A stretch of DNA of 64,000 bases from positions 31,900,430 through 31,964,429 of the forward strand of contig NC_090399.1 of NCBI RefSeq assembly GCF_036365525.1, given 5' to 3'. Shown here piece after piece: positions 23,601-63,009 of the stretch. The first letter of the stretch is position 1. Every line of letters begins with the position of its first letter. A program made the position numbers and the translations under genes. Source of the DNA: Heterodontus francisci (Eukaryota). The notes under the pieces are model-generated. The model did no database searches, was not told the origin of the DNA, and saw only the letters and a list, made by a program, of their open reading frames with translations.

Positions 23601-26600
23601 TGGAAAAGCTAAAGCAAAATCACATAGTAATGAACCCAAAACCCAGATCATTATAAAAAAAAGTCTCTTACTGTCATTACCACAAAATAACCTTTGGAAA
23701 AATAAATATTTATCCTTTGATGCAAACAAAACAAACACATTTAATACGATTTAATGAAATTTAAATTGTATACATCTCTTATGTCCTCCCAGCAACAATA
23801 ATCAATAAAACTATTGAAGTACTTTTCTAATAATAAATGTTATTTAAAAATGTGTAAAGGACAATTTAAACACATTGACCAGTTAAATAGATATAACTAA
23901 TACTCACTATTAACTTGAATGCTACTGCAAGGCACAATATTGCTTTGGAACCAATAGGAAAAAAGGAAATCAATGTCACTTGATTGAATATCTAAATACA
24001 CATCACTTTAACTAAATAACACTCTGCACTTCGATATTCACTGACCTTTGTAACACTGCAGGCTCGGGGACTGCTGAAATCGAAGGTGATGGAGAAAGTG
24101 TTACAACTTTGCTGCGTACGGCATAACTTTTTTCTTATTTATAAGTCACAGTGTTCAAACCACAATCCGGCCTCGATCATCTCATGGTTTCAACTGAACG
24201 TTACCAGTATTGTTTACCTACTCAAACTCTATACATATTCAAATGCTTAGTATTAAATATATAAGTATTTGACGTAATTTCTGAGCGTAAGCTATATGCA
24301 GCTGACTGCAGCTCACAAATGTAAAAATAATAGCCTGAAAATGATATCTAGGGAGGGACACTTGCCGTATTACTAGATATGGAAACATTCGGATTCTATT
24401 TTAACAATAAGCAACCATTAATAATGCAGAAAGATCAATATCACACGAGCCCATTAACGGCCCATTCGCTAATGTCACCTGGACTGCTTCATAACCCATC
24501 ATGCAAACATGTCCATAGTAGTAAAATAATGCAACTTAAACAAGTCACTTACGAGCTAAAGAGATAGCGTCAAAAATCCAATCATTCCTTCTGAATCACA
24601 AACAGAAAAAGCGCATTATCGATCAATGCAAAAATTATTGTTAAAAAAGAGGGGATTTACAGTGGGGAAGATTTACCAACCTCTGAAATTGTAGGCCACG
24701 AACTGTAGAAAGAAAAATTGACAGAGAAAAGTAACAGTTTGTATCTGACCATATCGAAGACATCAGTAAGAACCAAATGTCACTGCATTAGTTTGCATTT
24801 GTATGAATGTATCTATTTTATGGATATATCTGCAAGCGGAATGCTGTCCCTTATAAGAGTTACCTTTTGTCAGATAGTAACATGAGGAGAACAGAATGAA
24901 AGCTCCCAAAGCTCCGGCACTGACATACACGAATGTGTAGCGAGTCTGTGATTCGCTGGGTTTCTGTGTAGACGCTTCCAGCGAAAGCTTGCCCAGGCAG
25001 AAGAAAACAAGAGATTGTTGCCCCAGGACATCACTTCCTATCTCCCTTTCTCCACTGCAGATGAATATACAGTGTGCCCCAACACCAACATCTCCATCAA
25101 TTATAATGAGATTTAATTTCAATGGATGAAGAAAACTGCAGATGTCGTGCTGATTTTTGTGCTGATTTTTCCATTCGCCCCTGTATTTGTTAATTGGTCT
25201 TCTTATGTGTAGTTACGTGTGTGCGTTTTTTAAGAGTTTAAGAACTAATTTTTGATGTTATGAAATTCAGTAGTTATCGTGACAAAAAAGCCTAACGATT
25301 ATAAATTCGCAATAGTTGTCAATATTCTCCGGGAGAGGTGTTGGCTGTGTATGACTCTGAATGTTTGCATATGCGCCAGTGGTCTCTGTGCAAGCGTGAT
25401 CTACAGAGAGACGGGTGGTGAGACTGACACTGGTAGAAAACCTTGCAAGTTATGATGGAGCGGTAAAGAAATCCCAATTGTTTTCCTCGTTCCCTGGGAA
25501 ACATATTCATTTTGAAAAGTCTACCTCTACCTTGTCTACACCCTCTGTGTGTATGTATATATGTGTGTGTGTATCTGTGTGCAAACTATCATAACTGCTT
25601 CATAAACAGTTTGGTGATTTGACGGAAACAATAATTAAACACAAGCGGTTGACTGATATACACGTGCACCTTGACATAGAGAGAGAATGTTATCCTCATT
25701 TTCACTATGCTAATCTATTTTCATTACATGTAAGACCCGCGGTGCCTCCGCCCTTACCGAGTAAGCGACTGACCGACCTAGTGATTATAATGAAGTGTCA
25801 ACTCACGCACTACATTAAGTGTTGTTCCTTGACCTTGTTTTTCCTGAAATCCCATTAGTTCCACTTTGCAGTAATATATCCCTGAATCGTAATGTCTCAG
25901 ATCTGTTATATTAATGGAAGCGTCCCTTTTCCCTTTGAAATCGTCTGCACTTGCCCGAGTTATTCGCCCACTGTATTCCACAGCTTGGTCGGTGACTTCA
26001 GCTCCGTCTTCCGTGTTTTTGAACCATTTGAACACACCGACTCCTGAAGGGCCTTCATACGTGCAGTTGAGGATCACCGACTGCCCCTCAGTGGCACTAA
26101 TGAAGGGTGGGGTTTGAATAACTCTGATGCTGTAGTCTGCAGGAACTCCTGCCAATATATGAATTGGGATAATTTCTGAATAACAAGACACTCCTTATTT
26201 CACATAATGAAAATGAACGTCAAAACAAACAACCAAACGCTCAAGATCCTGGAAGCCTCTAGTGAAGAGTCCACAGAGACTGCGCTTATCCAGAAAGCCA
26301 GAGAGAGTTTCTAGAAATGGGAAATTTGACCCTGTTGGTTGGGTGCATTTTTCAGAGACCCCGCGTCCCAGCTGGGGCCTGAGACTTGCGGAGGGCTCAC
26401 AGGAAAATCTCCGGCGCAGAGACAACCATTTCCAACAGCTCGCTTTGGTCGACAGAAATCGCAGTTGATGAGCCCAGAATTTCCCCAGAAACCTTCCACT
26501 GCAGGAGTGGTGACGCCGAGCCTCGGGGATTCATCCTATCGGGGTCGGTTTTCATCGTTACCGCCTGGGCGTCGGGAAAATCTAGGGGGAGATTCCCATG

Positions 26601-35240: not shown

Positions 35241-35571
35241 ACAATGGGTTTACCAGTGAAATCAAAGTCTTCCAGTCCCCGAACTCCATTAATGTAACAG
35301 AAGCGGGTCGGTGCAGCTAAACTGCACCATTGAAGCGAACGCTACTGTCGGACGAGTTTTTTTTAGAGACGGACCTCATCTCATAGCGGAATTCTTTCTA
35401 TTAGAGCCGGATACTCAAATCAGGGTCGAATTACTTGTGCAAAAAAAAATGGCTCTTGTTAACATCCTCAATTTAGGAAAAAATGACTCGGATTTTTACT
35501 ACTGCGAGGTGGAAATTCCAGGGATTGGGAAAGGAAACGCGCGACAGGAACACAGCTCATTCTAACTGACA
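35241..35571 (+). pseudogene. Frameshifted Ig V exon (EIKVFQSPNSINVTE/VQLNCTIE...DSDFYYCEVEIPGIGKGN/TGTQLILTD)
   Basis: ttccag acceptor and GTGAGT donor. The length is 331 nt (not 3n), with frameshifts near 35303 and 35540, and the C-strand Trp is absent. Confidence 0.88.
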
Positions 35572-36829
35572 GTGAGTAGAGCAGACCAGAGTTCATTTGA
35601 AAGATTTCCCAATATTTAAGATTTGCACTGCTGTGCATGTGCTATACTCTGTGTTTTCAGTTCGGTGTTTTGAATTGTGTTCGTTTGCTAACGTCACTTT
35701 TGCATACATTGGCTACACTTGGTCACGAATTCACTTTCCGAAAGTGCACGGGTCGAATCTGAATCCCGCTATTCAAGCGTGGTACTGTCCCGCGATGAAG
35801 CAGAGGCCGAGTGGAGACTCCGTCTTAACTATTGTCCCACTGAGTCCTAACTATTGTCCCACTGAGTTCCCGATCTCCGCCCTGAGAAGAGACCTGCTGT
35901 TTCTTCACTGGTTAAGGAGGCAATTGAGCAATTTTGGCCAGCCGGTGCGGTTTGCTTCTTCGGTCACAGGAGGCAAAATAGAACCCGTCAAAAGGAAATC
36001 CTGATATTGCTCTTGTTAAATCAATTGTGGATGACTTTGATTTTGCGGATGAATCCACAGCGACAATGGTTTCGGTAAAAAAATAGTTTTGGGTACTTGT
36101 AGAGAGCTGAATGGGTCGGAAAATGTGAGCCAGTCTCCATGGAACGTTCGCTGCAGGGTAGCAGAAATCTCGGGAGTCGCCATTGCTGTTGTAGGAGGCT
36201 TTACCCCACTTCATTAAAGCATCTTCTTATCAATCACAAAGTAATGATAGAACCTATCTCATTGACTAAACTGTTGATCACCTGTTTTAATATCTCCTTA
36301 TGTGCTAACCCTCAGGTTTAATTTGATAATCTCTCCCTTGAGACGTTTAACTATGTTAAAAGCGCTATACAAACACAGGTTGTTGCTGTAATAGACCATA
36401 AAATTGGCTGCTTTGGTCCAAATCGTCGGAAAATACATAAATATAAGAAACCAAATTGCGAAATGGAGAGTATGATCGGTCGAAATGGAAAACCAGCGAT
36501 GCACTCGATCCCATCAGTTGCCAGGCAGGTGAGTTAGGTTATTCTGCCGCCTTAGCGTTTGTTTTTTATTTATATTTTGGAAAGATTCTCCTGTAACAGA
36601 AGTTCTTAAAGTGTGGTCCACGGATCACTAGTGGCCCGCGCAACACCCTGGCCCAGGCCATATGAGAGAACTGGCCAGAACCTTCATCCCCACCACTCTG
36701 GTGACTGTTACGACATACAACAGCCAGATCGGATTGGCAACAGTTGTGGGCCTGAAAACAAAGAGGAATCGGCTGAACGTGGAGTCCAACATGAGAATGA
36801 AACTCTCCAGCTTGGATCCAGACATCCAT

Positions 36830-41299: not shown

Positions 41300-43203
41300 A
41301 TAAATCACTGACCAACACAAACAAATGGACCGCTGGGTTGAGCACTACCTAGAACTGTACTCCAGGGAGAATGCTGTCACTGAGACTGCCCTCAATGCAG
41401 CCCAGCCTCTACCTGTCATGGATGAGCTGGACATACAGCCAACCAAATCAGAACTCAGTGATGCCATTGATTCTCTAGCCAGTGGAAAAGCCCCTGGGAA
41501 GGACAGCATTACCCCTGAAATAATCAAGAGTGCCAAGCCTGCTATACTCTCAGCACTGTGCTGGGACGAGGGAGCAGTACCCCAGGACATGCGCGATGCC
41601 AATATCATCACCCTCTATAAAAACAAAGGTGACCGCGGTGACTGCAACAACTACCGTGGAATCTCCCTGCTCAGCATAGTGGGGAAAGTCTTTGCTCGAG
41701 TCGCTCTGAACAGGCTCCAGAAGCTGGCCGAGCGCGTCTACCCTGAGGCACAGTGTGGCTTTCGTGCAGAGAGATCGACCATTGACATGCTGTTCTCCCT
41801 TCGTCGGATACAGGAGAAATGCCGTGAACAACAGATGCCCCTCTACATTGCTTTCATTGATCTCACCAAAGCCTTTGACCTCGTCAGCAGACATGGTCTC
41901 TTCAGACTACTAGAAAAGATTGGATGCCCACCAAAGCTACTAAGTATCATCACCTCATTCCATGACAATATGAAAGGCACAATTCAACATGTTGGCTCCT
42001 CATCAGACCCCTTTCCTATCCTGAGTGGCGTGAAACAGGGCTGTGTTCTCGCACCCACACTTTTTGGGATTTTCTTCTCCCTGCTGTTTTCACATGCGTT
42101 CAAGTCCTCTGAAGAAGGAATTTTCCTCCACATAAGATCAGGGGGCTGGTTGTTCAACCTTGCCCGTCTAAGAGCGAAGTCCAAAGTACGGAAAGTCCTC
42201 ATTAGGGAACTCCTCTTTGCTGACGATGCTGCTTTAACATCTCACACTGAAGAGTGCCTGCAGAGTCTCATCGACAGGTTTGCGGCTGCCTGCAATGAAT
42301 TTGGCCTAACCATCAGCCTCAAGTAAACGAACATCATGGGGCAGGATGTCATAAATGCTCCATCCATCAATATTGGCGACCACGCTCTGGAAGTGGTTCA
42401 AGAGTTCACCTACCTAGGCTCAACTATCACCAGTAACCTGCCTCTACAGGCAGAAATCAACAAGCGCATGGGAAAGGCTTCCACTGCTATGTCCAGACTG
42501 GCCAAGAGAGTGTGGGAAAATGGCGCACTGACACGGAACACAAAAGTCCGAGTGTATCAGGCCTGTGTCCTCAGTACCTTGCTCTATGGCAGCGAGACCT
42601 GGACAATGTATGTCAGCCAAGAGCAACGTCTCAATTCATTCCATCTTCGCTGCCTCCGGAGAATACTTGGCATCAGGTGGCAGGACCGTATCTCCAACAC
42701 AGAAGTCCTCGAGGCGGCCAACATCCCCAGCTTATACACACTACTGAGTCAGCGGCGCTTGAGATGGCTTGGCCATGTGAGCCACATGGAAGATGGCAGG
42801 ATCCCCAAAGACACATTGTACAGCGAGCTCGCCACTGGTATCAGACCCACCGGCCATCCATGTCTCCGCTATAAAGACGTCTGCAAACGCGACATGAAAT
42901 CCTATGACATTGATCACAAGTCGTGGGAGTCAGTTGCCAGCGTTCGCCAGAGCTGGCGGGCAGCCATAAAGACGGGGCTAAAATGTGGTGAGTCGAATAG
43001 TTGACAGGAAAAAAGACAGAGGCGCAAGGGGAGAGCCAACTGTGCAACAGCCCCGACAAACAAATTTCTCTGCAGCACCTGTGGAAAAGCCTGTCACTGT
43101 AGAATTGGCCTTTATAGCCACTCCAGGCGCTGCTTCACAAACCACTGACCACCTCCAGGCGCGTATCCATTGTCTCTCGAGATAAGGAGGCCCAAACGAA
43201 GAA
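41300..43203 (+). mobile_element. Young 5'-truncated RTE LINE inserted in a V-SINE (halves at ~41180-41300 and ~43204-43392, minus)
   Basis: Nearly intact RT (QCGFRAERST, FIDLTKAFD, GVKQGCVLAP, LLFADD) with few stops. It is near-identical to 126-1067. Confidence 0.95.
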
Positions 43204-53775: not shown

Positions 53776-53901
53776 TTACTTCACCGTGGCATACAGAACT
53801 GCTTCTTGGTTCAGGGGGTGCTCTGTTTGATTGTTCTCCCGCAGATTCAGCGTGGCGTATTGCACATTGTCTTCCTCTCTATTGAGATTATCTTCCTCTC
53901 T
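53776..53901 (-). CDS. Gene B terminal exon with two ITIMs (REEDNLNREEDNVQYATLNLRENNQTEHPLNQEAVLYATVK*)
   Basis: VQYATL and VLYATV fit (I/V/L/S)xYxx(L/V). The phase-0 TAG acceptor matches the preceding 38-nt exon. Confidence 0.85.
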   Translation of the reverse strand, partial: REEDNLNREEDNVQYATLNLRENNQTEHPLNQEAVLYATVK

Positions 53902-56900
53902 CTATTGAGATTAAAGTATTTCAGTGTTGAACAAAATATTATAAATTGAATATAACTTAGGCATCAAACACAGTGCAATGATTAACACCCAGCAACGACA
54001 TGTTGTACAGTTTCAATGAATTATAATTTAACCGTTCAAACATTCTCAATAAATAGTATATAAGTCCACCCATCAAATATTGCACAGTTAAATAGAACAG
54101 AAAACACTGTTCTAAATATTGTTGTTCCTTTGAATAGATTTCAGTGTGTCAAAGATTGCACAATTCAATCAAATATATAACAAACAGAGGAAACAGACAA
54201 CTGTTATTAAATTATTACAACTACAATGTTAAAACCCATGCATTTGAAAGCAATTCGCAATACGATCATGGCTGATCTTCGACCTCAATTCCACTTTCCC
54301 ACCCGTTCCCTATATCTCCTGATTCCTTTAGAGCCGAAAAATCTGTCCATTTCAGTCTTGGATATACGCAGCAACTGAACAATCTGGGCTGGAGAATTCC
54401 CAAGATTCACAATCCTCTGAGTGAAGAAATTTCTCCTCACCTCAGTCCTTATCTTGAGATTATGTCCCCGAGTTCGAGGCTCTCCAGCCAGGTAAAACTG
54501 CCTCAGCGTCTACCCTGTCAATCTCGCTCAGAATCTTATACCTTTCAATGATATTTACAGCATCTGTGAAAAACATATTAACCCTGGTAATAACTGTTCA
54601 GGAGAACTTTCTGTTCAGAGGAAATGTTACATCCCACCAGTTATCCTGCCTTTACTATTTTCGGGCGCTGACTGACCGCCTTTGTATATCCAGCATTTCA
54701 TGTTTTGACTCCAGAATTCCAGCATTTTTGTTCTTTCTTATTATCTCCACTCATCAAATTCTATGTGTTTTGTGTATATGTGCATATGTTTATATAGAGG
54801 GCTGGTTGCCTTATTTTATGTGTCTGGGTTATGCTTCATATGTGTGACTCTTGTTTGCGGATGTCTCTTATATGTGTGTGTGTGTGTTTCAGTGTGTATG
54901 GCTGTTTGAATTCTGGGACTGCAATCATGCATTTCCTGGATGCTTCTTGTTGAATTCTAACTAATATTTTAGTCCATGTTTCGATTAATTTTTAAAATTG
55001 CCGCGCCTGCGCGTAAAGCTGGCCTTTGGTACGGGCTGCAGTTTAGTTTAGTTTAGTTTAGAGATACAGCACTGAAACAGGCCCTTCGGCCCACCGAGTC
55101 TGTGCCGACCATCAACCACCCATATATACTAATCCTACACTAATCCCATATTCCTACCACATCCCCACCTGTCCCTATATTTCCCTACCACCTACCTATA
55201 CTAGGGGCAAATCATAATGGCCAATTGACCTACCAACCTGCAAATCTTTTGGCTTGTTCTCGCTTTCCCTCCGTGTGGCAAATTAAACATCTACCATACA
55301 TCCTCAACAAAAACAATTGAGGCCCTCCAACTTGTTTCTGTTTGTTTATATTACTACAGACAACTAAGAAAGCTTCTTAGATTATAATGTAGATGGAAAA
55401 ATAAACCACAGGTCACTTGGCTTAGCAATAACATAAATAGCGTTACATACCCCATTTGTTCCTCTGCGCTCAGAGCTATTATTTGTCTCTGTAAAACAGG
55501 GGGCGGGGAAGGCGGAATGACATCGTATAAATTAATGTGATCTATACAAGAAAATACAACACACTGGGTCATAAATACACTGATGTATAATGCTATAGCA
55601 TACAACATTACATTTTTGAAAACTGTAGAGCACAATGCAATGAAATATATGGTAGGATATACAGTATCTTAGAACAATATGATGCAATTAGCATAGCGCA
55701 AGATATGCTTTACAATTTACAGCCTCACAGCTCCAGCGACCCGGGTTCAGTTCTGGGTACTGCCTGTGTGGAGTTTGCAAGTTCTCCCTGTGACCGTGTG
55801 GGTTTCCGCCGGGTGCTCCAGTTTCCTACCACAGCCAAAGACCTGCAGGTTGATAGGTAAATTGGCCATTGTAAATTGTCCCTAGTGTAGGTAGGTGGGG
55901 ATATGGTAGGGAATATGGGATAAATGTAGGATTAGTATAAATGGGTGGTTATTTGTCGGCACAGACTCAATGGGCCGAAGGGCCTGTTTCAGTGCTGTAT
56001 CTCTCTCTGATCTAAGCTGGACAATATAAAGCAGTCAAGTTCCCCTCTGCGATTTGTAGGTACTGTATTCACATCTAATTTCTCCGCCCATTATTTTAAG
56101 TGCTTAAACTAGTGGACGAAGAAATTTGATATGAGCACGCCAAGCACTTATGGTACGAGATTAGAGCGAATATACTACAATCGTGACATTGAAACGTACA
56201 TAACAATATCATGTAATAATTTCTCACAAAATCAGCGTATGATAAGAAAATCGTATAAAGTATTTTATTAACCATAAATCTTAACACTCTAAGTTGACTT
56301 TGTGACCAGAACATCTAATATGTCTCACTTAATGACTGTTCTGGAAACAGGAGTTATTGAATCAGAGAATCATTCAGCTGAGGAGAAGGCCATTCGGCCC
56401 AAGCTGCCTGTGCTGACTCTCTGAAAGAGTTACTAATTAGCCCCATTCCTGATCCTTCCACATATCCAGCAAGGTGTCCCTTTATAAGCATATATCCGAC
56501 TTCCTTTTCAAAGTTGCGACTAAATCCGCTTCCATCACCCTTTCAGGCAATACATCCCCGATCATAACAATTCGTTGAGTTATAAAGAAAAACCACATCT
56601 CGCTCCGGCTTTTTCCCAGTCATTTTAAATTTGTATCCTTTAGTTACCAACAGAATCACAGATTATAACTAATAGATCATAAAATTAACCAGACTAGCAA
56701 CTAGAAATCAAATTCAGTCGACTGTTTGCGTTTATCAAAAGCACTAGGCTGTACACATTTCTCTCTGTTACTCACCCTTTTCCGGGATCTCTGCGTTTAT
56801 TGGATCTGGCCTGGAGCAAAAGGAGGCATCAGGAAATTTAGACGCTCGAGAAAACACCAATGAAAAAGAAAATGACGATATAAAAGAAGTAGTTCTATGT

Positions 56901-59900
56901 TTACAGCTACCTTGCGGGTTGCTGACGAGTGGCTGTGAGGAAAGGAAGGTGAAGACAAAAAAATTAAAGAGCTGAAGCTATTATTTCATTTGCTTCTTAT
57001 TGATATAATTGGTAGCGAATGGACTGGCCAATTTAAATTTAACCCAACTCGTCGAGAAGCTGACAGGGTGGGGTTGCAATTTTACGCGTACTTGAAATCA
57101 ACGGGAGAACAATATTGGGCGGGTTTAAACCCGGCGTTTCAGCCGGTTCTGTGGGTTTCCCGCCCGACGGGTGAGGTTAAAATTAGCAAAGAATTTACCA
57201 TTCGCATGAAAATGTACAGAGCTACAATTGGCATCGTTACCTTTCTTAAGGCAGCTTCTGATAACAAATATGAGTACAACGCTGATCAGGAGAGACGCCA
57301 CTGGTGCCGCCACATAGCCAAATGATGGGATCTTTATTATGTACTTGTCATTGCTACTGTCTTCAGAATCTGCATGAAAATGTATAGACAAGGCGGTCAT
57401 GAGCAGGGTAGTGTTCACATTGAGATTGACTGTCAGTAGATATGACGCAGATTCCAATCCCTTTGAAATGTGGCGCTATACTAACATTTCTCACTGCACA
57501 CATCAAACTGAGTCACGGATTAGAGCGCAAAGTGGCACGAGCGGTCAAACGGAGAGATTCCCACCCTTGAATTTACACTGTGGGAATTTCAATGGAAGGA
57601 CGCTTAACTTGTTGGTGCCAATTTCCTTTCATTTAGTTGGCGGGATGTGGGGTGGTGGAAACGGGTGCGGTCTGCTCAGAATGTCGTTCCTGCCGCCGGG
57701 TTTTTCTGAATCCACTACATCCTGGGGATCCGGGAACGAAAAGACACAACTTCCCTCAGATTTACGGGAGGGTTAAGAGAAAAAGAGCGTGCAGATATTG
57801 GACTTGCCTAAACTGGGTGGTTAATGTGGTTCTGTAGGGGGCCGAGCATTTTAACGGAGGCCAATGTATTAGTTTATGTTTACATATACAGCTCCACCTC
57901 CATTTACCAAATGATAGCGAGATCTAATTTATCATTGTTTATTCTCAATAGCCTGCTTGATATCGGTATGCTGAAATAGCAAGATGCTCCTTAGGCGGCA
58001 CCCAGTCTTCATTGGGTTGACTAGTTGACTGCAGTTCTGCCGAAAATTATAGGCAACTAAATTTAATTATTTTTTAAAATAACAAAATTGTCGGGATATC
58101 ATCCCATGGTGTCTTTGAGAAGGTGGTGGTGAGCTGCCTTCTTGAACCGCTGCAGTCCATGTGCTGTAGGTACACTCACAGGAAGGGAGTTCCAGGATTT
58201 TGACCCAGTGACAATGACGGAACGGCGATATGTTTTTTTTAAAGTCAGGATGGTGTGTAACTTGGAATGGAACATGGACTTTCGGTGTTCCATGTAGCTA
58301 TTCTCGTTGTCCTCATCGGTGCTGGAGGTCGCGGGGTTGGGAGTTCCAATCGATCTAATGGATAACCTACCCTTTCGGCCAATGCTACTCACTGGAAAAA
58401 TCTCCTATTTGATTCGTAACAATAATCTCACCAGCCCAAACTTACCAGGTTTATCACGTATCACTCTCAATGTGGTCCCGGCTCCAGACGCTACTCCGAT
58501 TCCGATCATCACGTTGCAAAAATAGAAACCGGTATCCTCCGGTTTCAGCTCGATTATTCTAATCGAGGCGTCTCTCCTCCTGCTGAAATCCTCTTTACTT
58601 GGCCCGAACACCCTACCTCGGAATTCGGCCGTACGGTTGGAAACTTCATTTCCCTGTTTCGTGCCTCGGTGCCATTTGTAGTCGCCGATTCCAGTGGGAC
58701 CTTCATATGTGCAGTTGAGGTTGACGGTCTCTCCCACCGCCTTGCTGAGAGATTCCGGCCTCTGAATTACTGTGATTTTACCTACAGTAACTGCTGCAAA
58801 TGGATAAACAGAATTACCATGGCGCTGTGATAAGGGAAAATTAATGTCTAATTACGTGATGCGGCATTTAATTAAAGTCATTATGAAATTAATGGAATTG
58901 AAAATGAGTCTATTTCAATAACAGGCGGGCACTGCGCAACGCCAATTTTGCGCCCAGCCGTCAAGTTGAAAATCTACCGTATGTGTGCGTGTGAACCTGG
59001 TGTGCCAGAAATGATCAAAAGACTGCTTACCGGAGAAAATGGCGATTGCCCAGGTAACTGCAGCCCAATCCATTCTCTCTGTAGGCGATAGAACAACTTC
59101 AGAAAATACTTCCATTGGTATACAGACAGGAAAATTTGAGCAATGCAGTGGAACCTGAGTTCGATTCCGGATATGAGCGACGGAAAAAAATGAAGTGCAG
59201 GCTGTTTACAGAATCGCAGTTTTTTTTTCTGGCAAATTGTCTTAACGACCCCGCCCCGCCTCTTGCACACACACACACGCACACACTCACATTCTGTCTC
59301 AATGGCACTTCACAGCTGAAGCACACACTTGGGCTGGGTTGTTAGCTTCACCAAGTAACTTGGGTAGATAATTAGCTGAGGATAGGGAAGAGAGTAAAAG
59401 TGAATGATTCCCCCCCCCCCCCCTCCCCCTGACTATGGTGAGAACTATGCAATAGAGATTCCTAGGGGTGGGTATTAGGACCATTGCTCCTTTTTGTTAT
59501 GTCAAAACCATCTGGACTTGTGTATAAGGAGTGAAGTTTCGAAATTTGTAGATGATATAAAACGTGGCAACGTGGTAAATAGTAATTGTAGCTGAGTTCA
59601 GGGCAACATCAACAGATTGGTACAATGGGCATTTACGCGGCAGATGCGATTTAATGCCGATAAGTGTGCACTTTGGAAGGGAGAACTTGAAGAGGCAGTA
59701 TAATCTAAACGATAGTATTTTGAAGGGGCGCAAGCGACCCTGGGGGTGAACATTCACAAACTTTTAAGGCAGTAGGGCAAGTTGATAAGGCAGTTAAGAA
59801 AGCGTATTGGATATTTGGCTTTGTAAATGGGGGAATCGAATTCAAAATCAAGAACGTCATGCTAAAGTTTTGCAAATCAGTGATGAGGCGTCGGCTGGAG

Positions 59901-62221
59901 TATTGTGTATAATTGTGGGCACCACACTTTAGGGGGATGTCAAGGCCTTGGAGAGAGTACAGAGGAGGTTTATCAGGATGGTACCAGCAGTGAGGGTCTT
60001 CAGTTATGAGGAGAGTTTGGAGAAGCTGCGATTGTTCTCCATAACTGGAGAAAGTTAAGGCGAGAAATGATAAAGGTGTTCGAAATAAGAGATTGTCATC
60101 GACCAAGTAGGGAGCAACTGTTTCCTGTGGCTGGTGGGTCGGGAACCAGAGGTCATGGATTTAAAATAATTGGGAAAAGAATTAGAGGCGAAATGGGGAG
60201 AAATGTCTTCACCCAGAGGGTTGTTAAGGACTGGAAAACTACCTGAAAGGGCGGTCGAATCAGGTTCTTTGACCAAATTAGACATTTAATTGAAGAGAAC
60301 TAATCTGCAGGGTTTGTGGGGAAAAGCAGGGGTGTGAGGCTCAATTGGACAGTTGACATTGCAACAGGCATGACGGGCCAAATGGCCTCCTCCTGCGTGG
60401 TCGGATTCTACGATACTACCGCCTGGGCCTCAAACATACTCTGGACAGTGCACAGAGAGGAAATGTGGCTGGGAAGATCCCACGTCTCTTACAGCACCCG
60501 ACGGATTTTCCTTTCTGCGCTCCGCCCAGGCAGTGATTAACTAGATCTGAAAGACGGAATTTTAACACACTCTTCCTCATCCGCACAGATGAGCTCTTTC
60601 ACGGACAGGCTGCATTCTCTCACACAGAGGGGCACAATCCTAGTGATATGCATACATAGCGATTCTGGACGTGGCTGTGAAAATGCTCTCTATTGATCCG
60701 TCCCAGCTAAATGGGAAACTGGTTCTAAAAGAGAGGAATTATAATTGTTGGAATTATACTTTTGTTCAGGAACCCATTTCCCGTGTAAATGCTATTGGAC
60801 CTGTTTCTATGTTTCCTTTGACACCTTTTAAAACAGGTAAGGATTATTTAACATTTAATGCAATTTCATTTGCACCAGAACAACAAAACAACTAGTATTC
60901 TCATCGTTTGACTAAGTCGTGAGTCATGTCCAGTGTGGTCGAGCTATATGTAACACCGCTATTAAACCAAGCAAGTCGGAGTTTGATAAAAATTAATTCA
61001 ATTACACCGAGAACAAAAAAAACATAAACGGGTTGTCAATTTCAGGAATGATTGAATTCCTGAACTTGAAATGAACAGGAACACAAGTAGAGGTTTGAAA
61101 AGGTAAAAAAAAAAAAGCCAATGCAGAAAATCTGAAACAGCAAAATGAAAGAGTTGGAAATAGGCAATTGTTCAGTCAGCATTTGGAGTGAAATGGACGG
61201 GGTAACATTCCGGTGCTGGCGCACTATTACCGTCCCACTTCAGACTTTAACCCTGGCTCGCTCTTTCAAATGTTTGGAAAATGCGCTCTTGGTGCAGAAT
61301 AACCAGGGAGGAAACGATGAGAGGGCCTGAACAACTTGCAATTGCCGCTTCTAGCAATGCGCCTGCAAGCAGAATTAGTGTTTGTACCGAAGAAGGGTCA
61401 CTGACCCGAAACGTTAACTCTGCTTCTCTTTCCACAGAAGCTGCCAGATCTGCTGAATGGTTCCAGCATTTCTTGTGTTTGTATTAGTGTTTGTACCCCC
61501 CAGCGCCCGCAGTTTCCCCTTCAGCGCCTCGTGTCAAAGCCTTGTTGCACCGCACCTGTTGTCCTCACCCCTATCTATCCTCTCTATCTCTACAATACTG
61601 GAATCTCCCCTGATTAGAAAACTGCAGCATTCCCCATAACAAGAACTTTAAAAAGCTCGAAAGCCTGAATCACAATTCAAGTCTCCAGTTAGTCTTCTAG
61701 TTATAGGTATTAAGAAAGACTGCACAGGCTAGGGGATCTTGTTTCTCTAGGAGACGGCTGAGGGGAGACCTAATAGAGGTACTTAAAATTATGAAGGGGT
61801 AGATGCAGAGAAGATGTTTATATTTGTGGAAGAGTTCAAAATTAGGTGTCATAAATATAAGGTAGTAACTAGTAAATCCAGTAAGGAATTCAGGACAAAC
61901 CTCTTTAACCAGGGAGTGATGAGAATACGGAACGTGCTGACACGTAGAATCGTTGAAGTGAATCGCAAAGGTGCATGTAAAGGGAAGCTAGATAAGTACA
62001 TGAAGGAAAACGAATTGATAAGATTAGCTGAGGTAGGGTGGGAGGTGGCCTGTTTGGAAAACAAACAGTGACAGACCAGTTGGGCCGAATGGCCTGTTTC
62101 TGTGCTGTAAATAGAATGTAATGTTCGGCGCAAACATCGCACCATTAGCCTACTCACCTTGTGCTAACAATCGACAGCAGCTTCCAAATAATAATTCGCC
62201 TTTGGGACCCTTAGCTCGCAT
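53776..62221 (-). CDS. Gene B: inhibitory NKp30/NCR3-like VJ-type IgSF receptor with two ITIMs, ~253 aa, 7 predicted exons (62221-62158, 58793-58446, 57369-57241, 56932-56911, 56810-56776, 55488-55451, 53901-53776)
   Basis: All introns are GT-AG, phases run 1,1,1,2,1,0, and the total is 762 nt with no internal stop. The leader exon is the least certain part. Confidence 0.8.
57241..57369 (-). CDS. Gene B stalk/TM exon (DSEDSSNDKYIIKIPSFGYVAAPVASLLISVVLIFVIRSCLKK)
   Basis: Uncharged hydrophobic helix, CAG acceptor, AAAG|gtaac donor, 129 nt. Confidence 0.88.
58446..58793 (-). CDS. Gene B Ig V-set (VJ-type) exon, NKp30/NCR3-like
   Basis: LNCTY, YKWHR, GNEVSNRTAEFRGRV (cf. human NKp30 GKEVRNGTPEFRGRL), DTGFYFC and GAGTTLRV. 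348 nt, phase 1-1. Confidence 0.93.
59425..60420 (+). mobile_element. Degenerate CR1 LINE 3' fragment in gene B intron 1
   Basis: KFVDD and LEYCV.LWAPHFR remnants. Confidence 0.8.
61710..62115 (+). mobile_element. Degenerate CR1 3' end
   Basis: RLRGDLIEVLKIMKG remnant and gggccgaatggcctgtttctgtgctgta tail. Confidence 0.75.
62158..62221 (-). CDS. Gene B candidate leader exon MRAKGPKGELLFGSCCRLLAQ
   Basis: 64 nt, phase 1, AAG|GTGAGT donor. It is only weakly hydrophobic but shares CRL with the locus P leader. Confidence 0.5.
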
Positions 62222-63009
62222 TATCCCGTCTGTGCTGCACCATTGTCCTCAAGACTGTACATCTTGATGGATAAAATTCAGGGCGCAGGGAGAGAAACTC
62301 CTGGCAACAATGTACTGTTGATCAGAAACTAGGAGAAAATGAAATTATGGAATGTGATCTTTAAGTAAACGTGTCCTTGTGCCTGTTGGCAGAGAGAGCA
62401 GGTAATTGCTTTAGTACCTTGATGAAGGATCAAGTCTCATAGTGGAGAAGATCTGCCAATATTCAAAGCAATCGTATCGGAATATTGTGACCTGCAATAG
62501 CTTTGATTTATAAGGGGACAAGACAAGGAAGACTTTAAGGGCGTGGGGAGGGACGGTAAGGAGAATCAGCTCAGAGTAGGTCGCTGCAGTGGAAGAGCTG
62601 TGGCGGGGGAGAGTGCGACGGGGCGAATGATCTCTAAATACAGTTTCTATGAGTCAGAGACCAAATTACCCCGGGAGCTGCTACATGCAAAGCCCTACCT
62701 CACCTCAACCCCAGTGGAGGTAGTGGAACAGAAAGGAGTAGGGAAACATTCCTCTCATCTCTGTTTGGAGGGCACGCTTGGAAATCAGCTTTCAGGGAAG
62801 TAGTGAAGAGTGAGACACATCCAAACGCAAGGTGCCGGTGGTTTGTGTTACTTTCATGTGTGATTGTTGAGTGTAGACAGACAATCAGGGGCATAAAGTC
62901 CAGTTAACAGTTTCCTCATAAACACAGCTGGAGATTCCCCTCGAAAGGATGGAAAATTAGTGAAACTAAACTGGGCAGCGGAATTGTCAGCTCAGCATGT
63001 TCTAATGTG

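Follow-up and report, generated by a model that had tools for sequence, protein, structure and literature searches.

To our knowledge, no natural killer (NK) receptor other than NKp30 can be traced from sharks to humans, and the known role of NKp30 is activation. Does a shark gene with an NKp30-like V domain encode an activator as well, or a brake? The gene in question lies on the minus strand of a 64-kb stretch of the genome of the horn shark, Heterodontus francisci (the window, whose positions serve as coordinates below unless contig C29, on which the gene lies, is named). A sequence-only reading had proposed that a V exon and a 129-nt uncharged transmembrane (TM) exon are followed by exons of 22, 35 and 38 nt leading to two immunoreceptor tyrosine-based inhibitory motifs (ITIMs), VQYATL and VLYATV, and this chain is borne out by exon phases, spliced contigs and RefSeq. 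The gene is intact, transcribed and linked to the major histocompatibility complex (MHC); it encodes a receptor of the NCR3/NKp30 family with a single V domain, an uncharged anchor and two conserved ITIMs, likely the inhibitory member of a paired-receptor cluster. Its parts, from 5' to 3' on the minus strand, are the following.

62159..62221, minus strand: 3' part of an upstream first exon, located by tblastn with the RefSeq protein; donor present
59031..59073, minus strand: coding part of the leader (signal peptide) exon; acceptor at 59078
58446..58793, minus strand: V exon, a single-exon VJ-type V domain of the immunoglobulin superfamily (IgSF), NCR3/NKp30 family
57241..57369, minus strand: stalk and TM exon, 129 nt
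56911..56932, minus strand: cytoplasmic micro-exon 1, 22 nt
56811..56910, minus strand: 100-nt intron, spliced or retained in RNA-type contigs
56776..56810, minus strand: cytoplasmic micro-exon 2, 35 nt
55489..55541, minus strand: alternative 5' extension of micro-exon 3 (RefSeq isoform X3)
55451..55488, minus strand: cytoplasmic micro-exon 3, 38 nt
53776..53901, minus strand: last coding exon; 3' untranslated region covered to at least 53412
53848..53865, minus strand: ITIM 1, VQYATL
53782..53799, minus strand: ITIM 2, VLYATV

Inspection of the splice sites on the minus strand shows GT-AG at every intron and compatible phases throughout. The leader exon (59073-59031) lies outside the coordinates of the sequence-only reading; with it, the open frame extends over 247 aa. 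The RefSeq frame opens farther upstream, at ATG 62221, which adds 23 residues ahead of the signal peptide. Catshark and nurse-shark proteins begin at the Met equivalent to ATG 59073, so that the conserved start is 59073. The V exon begins at a NAGNAG with an alternative start at 58790, its domain carries two N-glycosylation sequons, and the TM core of 21 residues contains no charged residue at all. At the distal end, VLYATV is followed by a single Lys and the stop (53799-53776), and the tyrosines of the two ITIMs lie 22 residues apart. A single ITIM consensus is common in the window (223 matches in six frames), and tandem pairs within one open frame number just 3. Under a simple splice score devised for this analysis, with acceptors ranked among 351 AGs, the acceptors of the 22-, 35- and 38-nt exons rank 1, 5 and 2; that of the last exon is weak (96/351), and the donor of micro-exon 1 has the lowest score of all donors used. 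A short tandem duplication (53913-53870, minus strand), absent from catshark and from the gene's duplicated copy, spans the last-exon acceptor and adds about six residues in frame. Other tails that would keep the ITIMs in frame, using acceptor 55541 with the second duplicated acceptor copy (53878) or with donor 55447, were rejected because of poor scores (rank 269/351; 67/293) and a misfit with contig arithmetic.

Contigs from two of four sequencing runs (X1 and X2, one sample) cover the exons, and runs X3 and X4 have no contig there, which speaks neither for nor against the chain; no run is recorded as RNA, and X1 and X2 are taken as such because their contigs skip introns. The V-to-TM and TM-to-22-nt junctions are spliced in both runs and the 22-to-35-nt junction in run X1 alone. 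For the 35-to-38-nt junction, loose contig ends match the 38-nt exon in both runs, and the 38-to-last junction is indicated by 105 loose letters (38 + 67) that reach 30 nt into the following contig, with which RefSeq agrees. The encoded protein is identical to RefSeq XP_067865395.1 (isoform X2) and XP_067865393.1 (isoform X1), both named SIRP-alpha-like, and XP_067865396.1 (isoform X3) is named NCR3-like. Because these models were possibly built on similar RNA data, they are not taken as evidence separate from the contigs. They already encode the ITIM tail, which therefore was not hidden from annotation.

At least three isoforms exist, the ITIM form being one of them, because some transcripts stop just after the TM exon or shift frame. 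Retention of intron 56910-56811, an isoform that the sequence-only reading missed, creates a TAG at 56909-56907, right after micro-exon 1, and yields a 181-aa protein without ITIMs. This stop lies 172 nt ahead of the last junction, a position that matches the usual rule for nonsense-mediated decay. RefSeq isoform X3 uses acceptor 55541, which is not preserved in the gene's duplicated copy; its last exon is out of frame, and both ITIMs are lost. Read-through of the micro-exon 2 donor would append Gly-Glu-stop. Transcripts that end after the TM exon or use another frame had been named as the outcome that would speak against the tail; this objection holds in part, through the retained intron and isoform X3, next to the spliced ITIM form. 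At the other end of the gene, depth arithmetic hints at two 5' ends (59031-59095 and 62159-62400, minus strand), one contig continuing upstream past the leader acceptor and another apparently spliced from the upstream exon.

The tail is shared by other sharks. The catshark orthologue, which forms the first half of the fused model XP_038671257.1, is collinear across all three micro-exon segments and carries the ITIMs MQYAQL and VLYATV, and the bamboo-shark orthologue carries VQYAEI and MVYAKV. Conservation of the tyrosines in orthologues had been set beforehand as a test, and both are kept in both species. The horn-shark tail thus contains, and its orthologues conserve, the ITIM consensus, given as (S/I/V/L)xYxx(I/V/L) (PMC12151841). 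Identity to catshark is 20/29 in the ITIM block, 76/115 in V and 13/43 in the stalk/TM region; by these counts the ITIM block is about as conserved as the V domain, and the stalk/TM region is less so. XP_038671257.1 apparently fuses two neighbours, the catshark orthologues of both intact genes of the window, suggesting that catshark arranges these genes in the same order. The horn-shark, catshark, bamboo-shark and nurse-shark proteins, with one further hit, form a clade (SH-aLRT 100) in a quick tree of 72 rows and 113 columns whose backbone is poorly resolved, including for one-to-one orthology with mammalian NCR3. In all, 150 representative hits were listed among 346 at E up to 0.001, and 16 proteins were picked by hand from the matches listed, not as a census. 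Tandem ITIM-like motifs 21-23 residues apart occur in ten of these 16 (horn shark, catshark, bamboo shark, bichir, sterlet, lungfish, three salamanders and gecko), three have a wider spacing, and three have no motif (nurse shark, hamster NKp30 and meerkat NKp30).

The V domain places the gene in the NCR3/NKp30 family. As in that family, V and J segments share one non-rearranging exon, with G-x-G-T in the G strand. The predicted V structure (pLDDT 89.9) retrieves NKp30 as Foldseek matches 1-4, all ahead of SIRP-alpha. A profile of 17 cluster V exons against the PDB scores 81 bits for NKp30 and at most 61.5 bits for SIRP; NKp30 is the best single-domain match, pIgR scoring higher merely by summing five weak domains. 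The V domain is 66% identical to the deposited nurse-shark NCR3 QTT61898.1, and SIRP-like V rows form a separate branch in the quick tree (support 99). Family membership therefore holds by fold, profile, nurse-shark relative and MHC linkage, as the sequence-only reading had supposed in calling the receptor NKp30-like, and it corrects the RefSeq name ‘SIRP-alpha-like’, which is misleading. The TM Arg of mammalian-type activating NKp30 is absent, and the receptor is not classed as activating NKp30 itself for this reason.

Genomic context shows that the gene is not alone. The V exon is about 112 kb away from an MHC class I alpha-2 match at C29:32,071,099, on a contig that holds most MHC class I matches of the genome; a search for MHC class II beta, run without a positive control, found nothing. 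At least 31 related V exons were found in the genome, all on contig C29 (150 of 276 candidates scored), of which at least 20 form a cluster that includes this gene at 31.0-31.96 Mb. Another group, of 11 or more NCR3-like V exons, lies 16 Mb away at C29:14.8-15.4 Mb, and one RefSeq-type hit matching it combines an uncharged TM with a terminal ITIM-like motif. Scanning of 17 loci in the first cluster yielded 8 TM-exon candidates, three with Arg, like mammalian NKp30, and five without a basic residue (two of these five contain Glu), and ITIM-like exons follow several cluster TM exons. Related ectodomains with activating and inhibitory anchors or tails thus occur in one cluster. Leukocyte IgSF clusters normally contain paired receptors. 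Identity of the V domain to the other 16 aligned paralogues is 34-50%, so that sharing of a ligand is not assured.

The quick tree, with labels assigned by eye, interleaves ITIM (23 rows) and charged-TM (28 rows) proteins, each label requiring 13 changes, and close ITIM/Arg pairs occur at the bichir and lizard branches. This interleaving matches the pattern of paired receptors. A single ancient inhibitory V lineage was considered and is unsupported by those 13 changes for each label; the similar tails across species may reflect convergence on a generic SHP-binding spacing instead of shared ancestry. The description of the gene as ‘an inhibitory counterpart of NKp30’ is supported with a qualification: the conserved ITIMs and uncharged TM make a putatively inhibitory architecture, but the gene is one inhibitory-type member among the many of a mixed cluster and no unique counterpart of mammalian NKp30.

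Several observations weigh against an inhibitory receptor of this family. The single V sequence scores nearly the same against SIRP-alpha (47.0 bits) and NKp30 (46.1 bits) in the PDB. The -2 position of the ITIM deviates to Met in catshark ITIM 1 and bamboo-shark ITIM 2. The deposited nurse-shark orthologue QTT61898.1 ends ahead of the ITIM exon. Contig depth, a poor measure of expression, is higher for the retained intron than for the spliced form in run X1 (9.12 vs 5.96), and the sole contig in run X2 is the retained form (8.24), all from one sample. In one study, the ITIM of NKp44-1 was phosphorylated yet did not recruit SHP-1/2 (PMC6514059). The first of these points, SIRP-alpha being the top single-sequence match by 0.9 bit, joins with the RefSeq name of isoforms X1 and X2 to suggest a SIRP-alpha-like or other generic ITIM receptor unrelated to NKp30. 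Such an origin is most improbable and largely refuted: the cluster profile and Foldseek put NKp30 first, SIRP-like rows keep to their own branch, the encoded protein has none of the C1 domains of the V-C1-C1 SIRP-alpha ectodomain, and the identity to nurse-shark NCR3 and the MHC linkage speak for the NKp30 family.

The contig depths, the ITIM-less isoform X3 and the nurse-shark record bear instead on which product matters. The last residues of QTT61898.1 are Gly-Glu, at precisely the point where the horn-shark gene would end on read-through of the micro-exon 2 donor; judging by this shared end point, it is probably a truncated isoform. All three would fit a gene whose main product is the tail-less form, mostly a decoy or adhesion receptor with a minor ITIM isoform. 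This appears unlikely, since the ITIM block is conserved like the V domain, which implies selection on the full tail, and since the retained form has the stop position of a decay target. Short introns, moreover, frequently stay in incompletely processed RNA, and the depths come from a single sample. The tyrosines could also serve another purpose, as endocytosis or adaptor sites or as sources of activating SHP-2 signals, without inhibition. YxxL/V also matches sorting signals, and NKp44-1 offers a precedent (PMC6514059). Both motifs are nevertheless full ITIM consensus matches with a hydrophobic -2 and Ala at +1, and the spacing of 21-23 residues recurs in ten of the 16 proteins hand-picked among the matches listed; a purely non-inhibitory role is thus distinctly improbable.

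For the inhibitory receptor favoured here, inhibition and SHP recruitment are predictions from the encoded protein. Engagement of a ligand, with a B7H6-like self protein as first guess, would allow a Src-family kinase to phosphorylate both tail tyrosines, on which SHP-1, SHP-2 or SHP-2L could dock with both of its SH2 domains. The phosphatase would then dampen signals of activating receptors, including those of the Arg-TM paralogues. With no Arg in its TM, the receptor itself would not recruit CD3zeta/FcRgamma. The ITIMs are lost when the 100-nt intron is retained or acceptor 55541 is used, and the brake would then be weakened, the ITIM-less forms lowering it through nonsense-mediated decay or as ligand-binding decoys. 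B7-H6 is the human NKp30 ligand (PMC3972465). Shark SHP-1 and SHP-2 as well as SHP-2L keep their SH2 sites, and in PD-1 an Ala at pY+1 favours SHP-1 (PMC12151841).

Comparison with known receptors sharpens this assignment. The nurse-shark NCR3 QTT61898.1 belongs to the same orthologue clade and shares the closely related V domain, the uncharged TM and the first two micro-exon segments, but it stops ahead of the ITIM exon, whereas the horn-shark gene has the full tandem-ITIM tail. Kinlein et al. 2021 reportedly described an MHC-linked shark NCR3 gene family of eight subtypes. The XMIV genes of Xenopus (Ohta et al. 2006) are likewise said to be MHC-linked V-type relatives of NKp30, ITIMs being present in some and a charged TM in others; the searches made brought up neither a sequence nor a paper named XMIV. 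Mammalian NKp30 resembles the shark receptor in its one non-rearranging VJ-type V exon, its fold, which is the closest, and its MHC linkage, and it also splices alternative cytoplasmic tails (PMC12272517), as the shark gene does. Unlike it, the shark receptor has no TM charge, two ITIMs and many sibling genes. Mammalian NKp30 uses a TM Arg for CD3zeta/FcRgamma, and its tail is described as lacking a signalling motif (PMC6514059); the hamster and meerkat NKp30 hits show the TM Arg, and a figure legend credits NKp30 isoform C with an ITIM (PMC12272517). Checkpoint receptors of the PD-1/SIRP-alpha type share with the shark receptor a V domain, an uncharged TM and a pair of tyrosine motifs of the kind that suits tandem-SH2 phosphatases. 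Their V domains are of another family, however; unlike SIRP-alpha the shark receptor has no C1 domains, and unlike PD-1 its second motif lacks the Thr of the immunoreceptor tyrosine-based switch motif, neither motif matching the PD-1 consensus (PMC12151841).

No description of an ITIM-bearing shark NCR3 was found in the literature, which is weak evidence of novelty, as the texts of the main shark NCR3 papers lay outside the search; the excerpts seen of PMC10751288, PMC11599192, PMC12227049 and PMC12863176 mention NKp30/NCR3 just in passing or in references. Inhibitory-type members of the NCR3 family are rather likely to be in print already. The surprise is limited, because paired receptors are usual, RefSeq has the tail and ITIM-bearing NKp30 relatives may be published. 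What is well supported is that the gene is a real inhibitory-type member of a known family, and what is added to this is the conservation across species and the isoform with the retained intron. That the shark MHC cluster holds a conserved inhibitory form suggests an ancestral system with both accelerator and brake; the receptor is a candidate for the control of self-tolerance in shark NK and T cells, and the gene offers a defined splice switch. A tentative, rather doubtful extension of this idea is that an MHC-linked paired system arose 450 million years ago and that mammalian NKp30 is what survives of its activating half. The inhibitory half, whose tandem ITIMs keep a fixed spacing of 21-23 residues, would persist in sharks, bichir, sturgeon, lungfish, salamanders and lizards, bind the same B7H6-like ligand and, in sharks, be turned off through a regulated retention of the intron. 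The published nurse-shark cDNA of this subtype would then be one such truncated form, in which the ITIMs are hidden.

The window and its surroundings contain further relatives. A second NCR3-family gene occupies 27310-21400 (minus strand), with a V exon at about 26130-25800 and a TM exon ending near 24863. In the catshark counterpart the TM carries an Arg, but that position is Gly here and in a duplicate at C29:31.014 Mb. The RefSeq model of the duplicate continues into a long tail, in which several Tyr-Asp/His-Asp/Glu-Ile motifs occur. A divergent V exon at 35261-35575 (plus strand), with a frameshift near its start, resembles a pseudogene relic. An inverted partial copy of the 3' half of the receptor gene lies at C29:30,979,500-30,983,500; in it the last-exon acceptor AG has become CG and the second ITIM Tyr has become His, and the 27 kb examined upstream yielded no V exon. 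Of the remaining sequence, 41300-43150 (plus strand) holds a decayed reverse-transcriptase remnant of the long interspersed nuclear element type, and the introns are rich in repeats resembling short interspersed nuclear elements, present as many shorter stretches.

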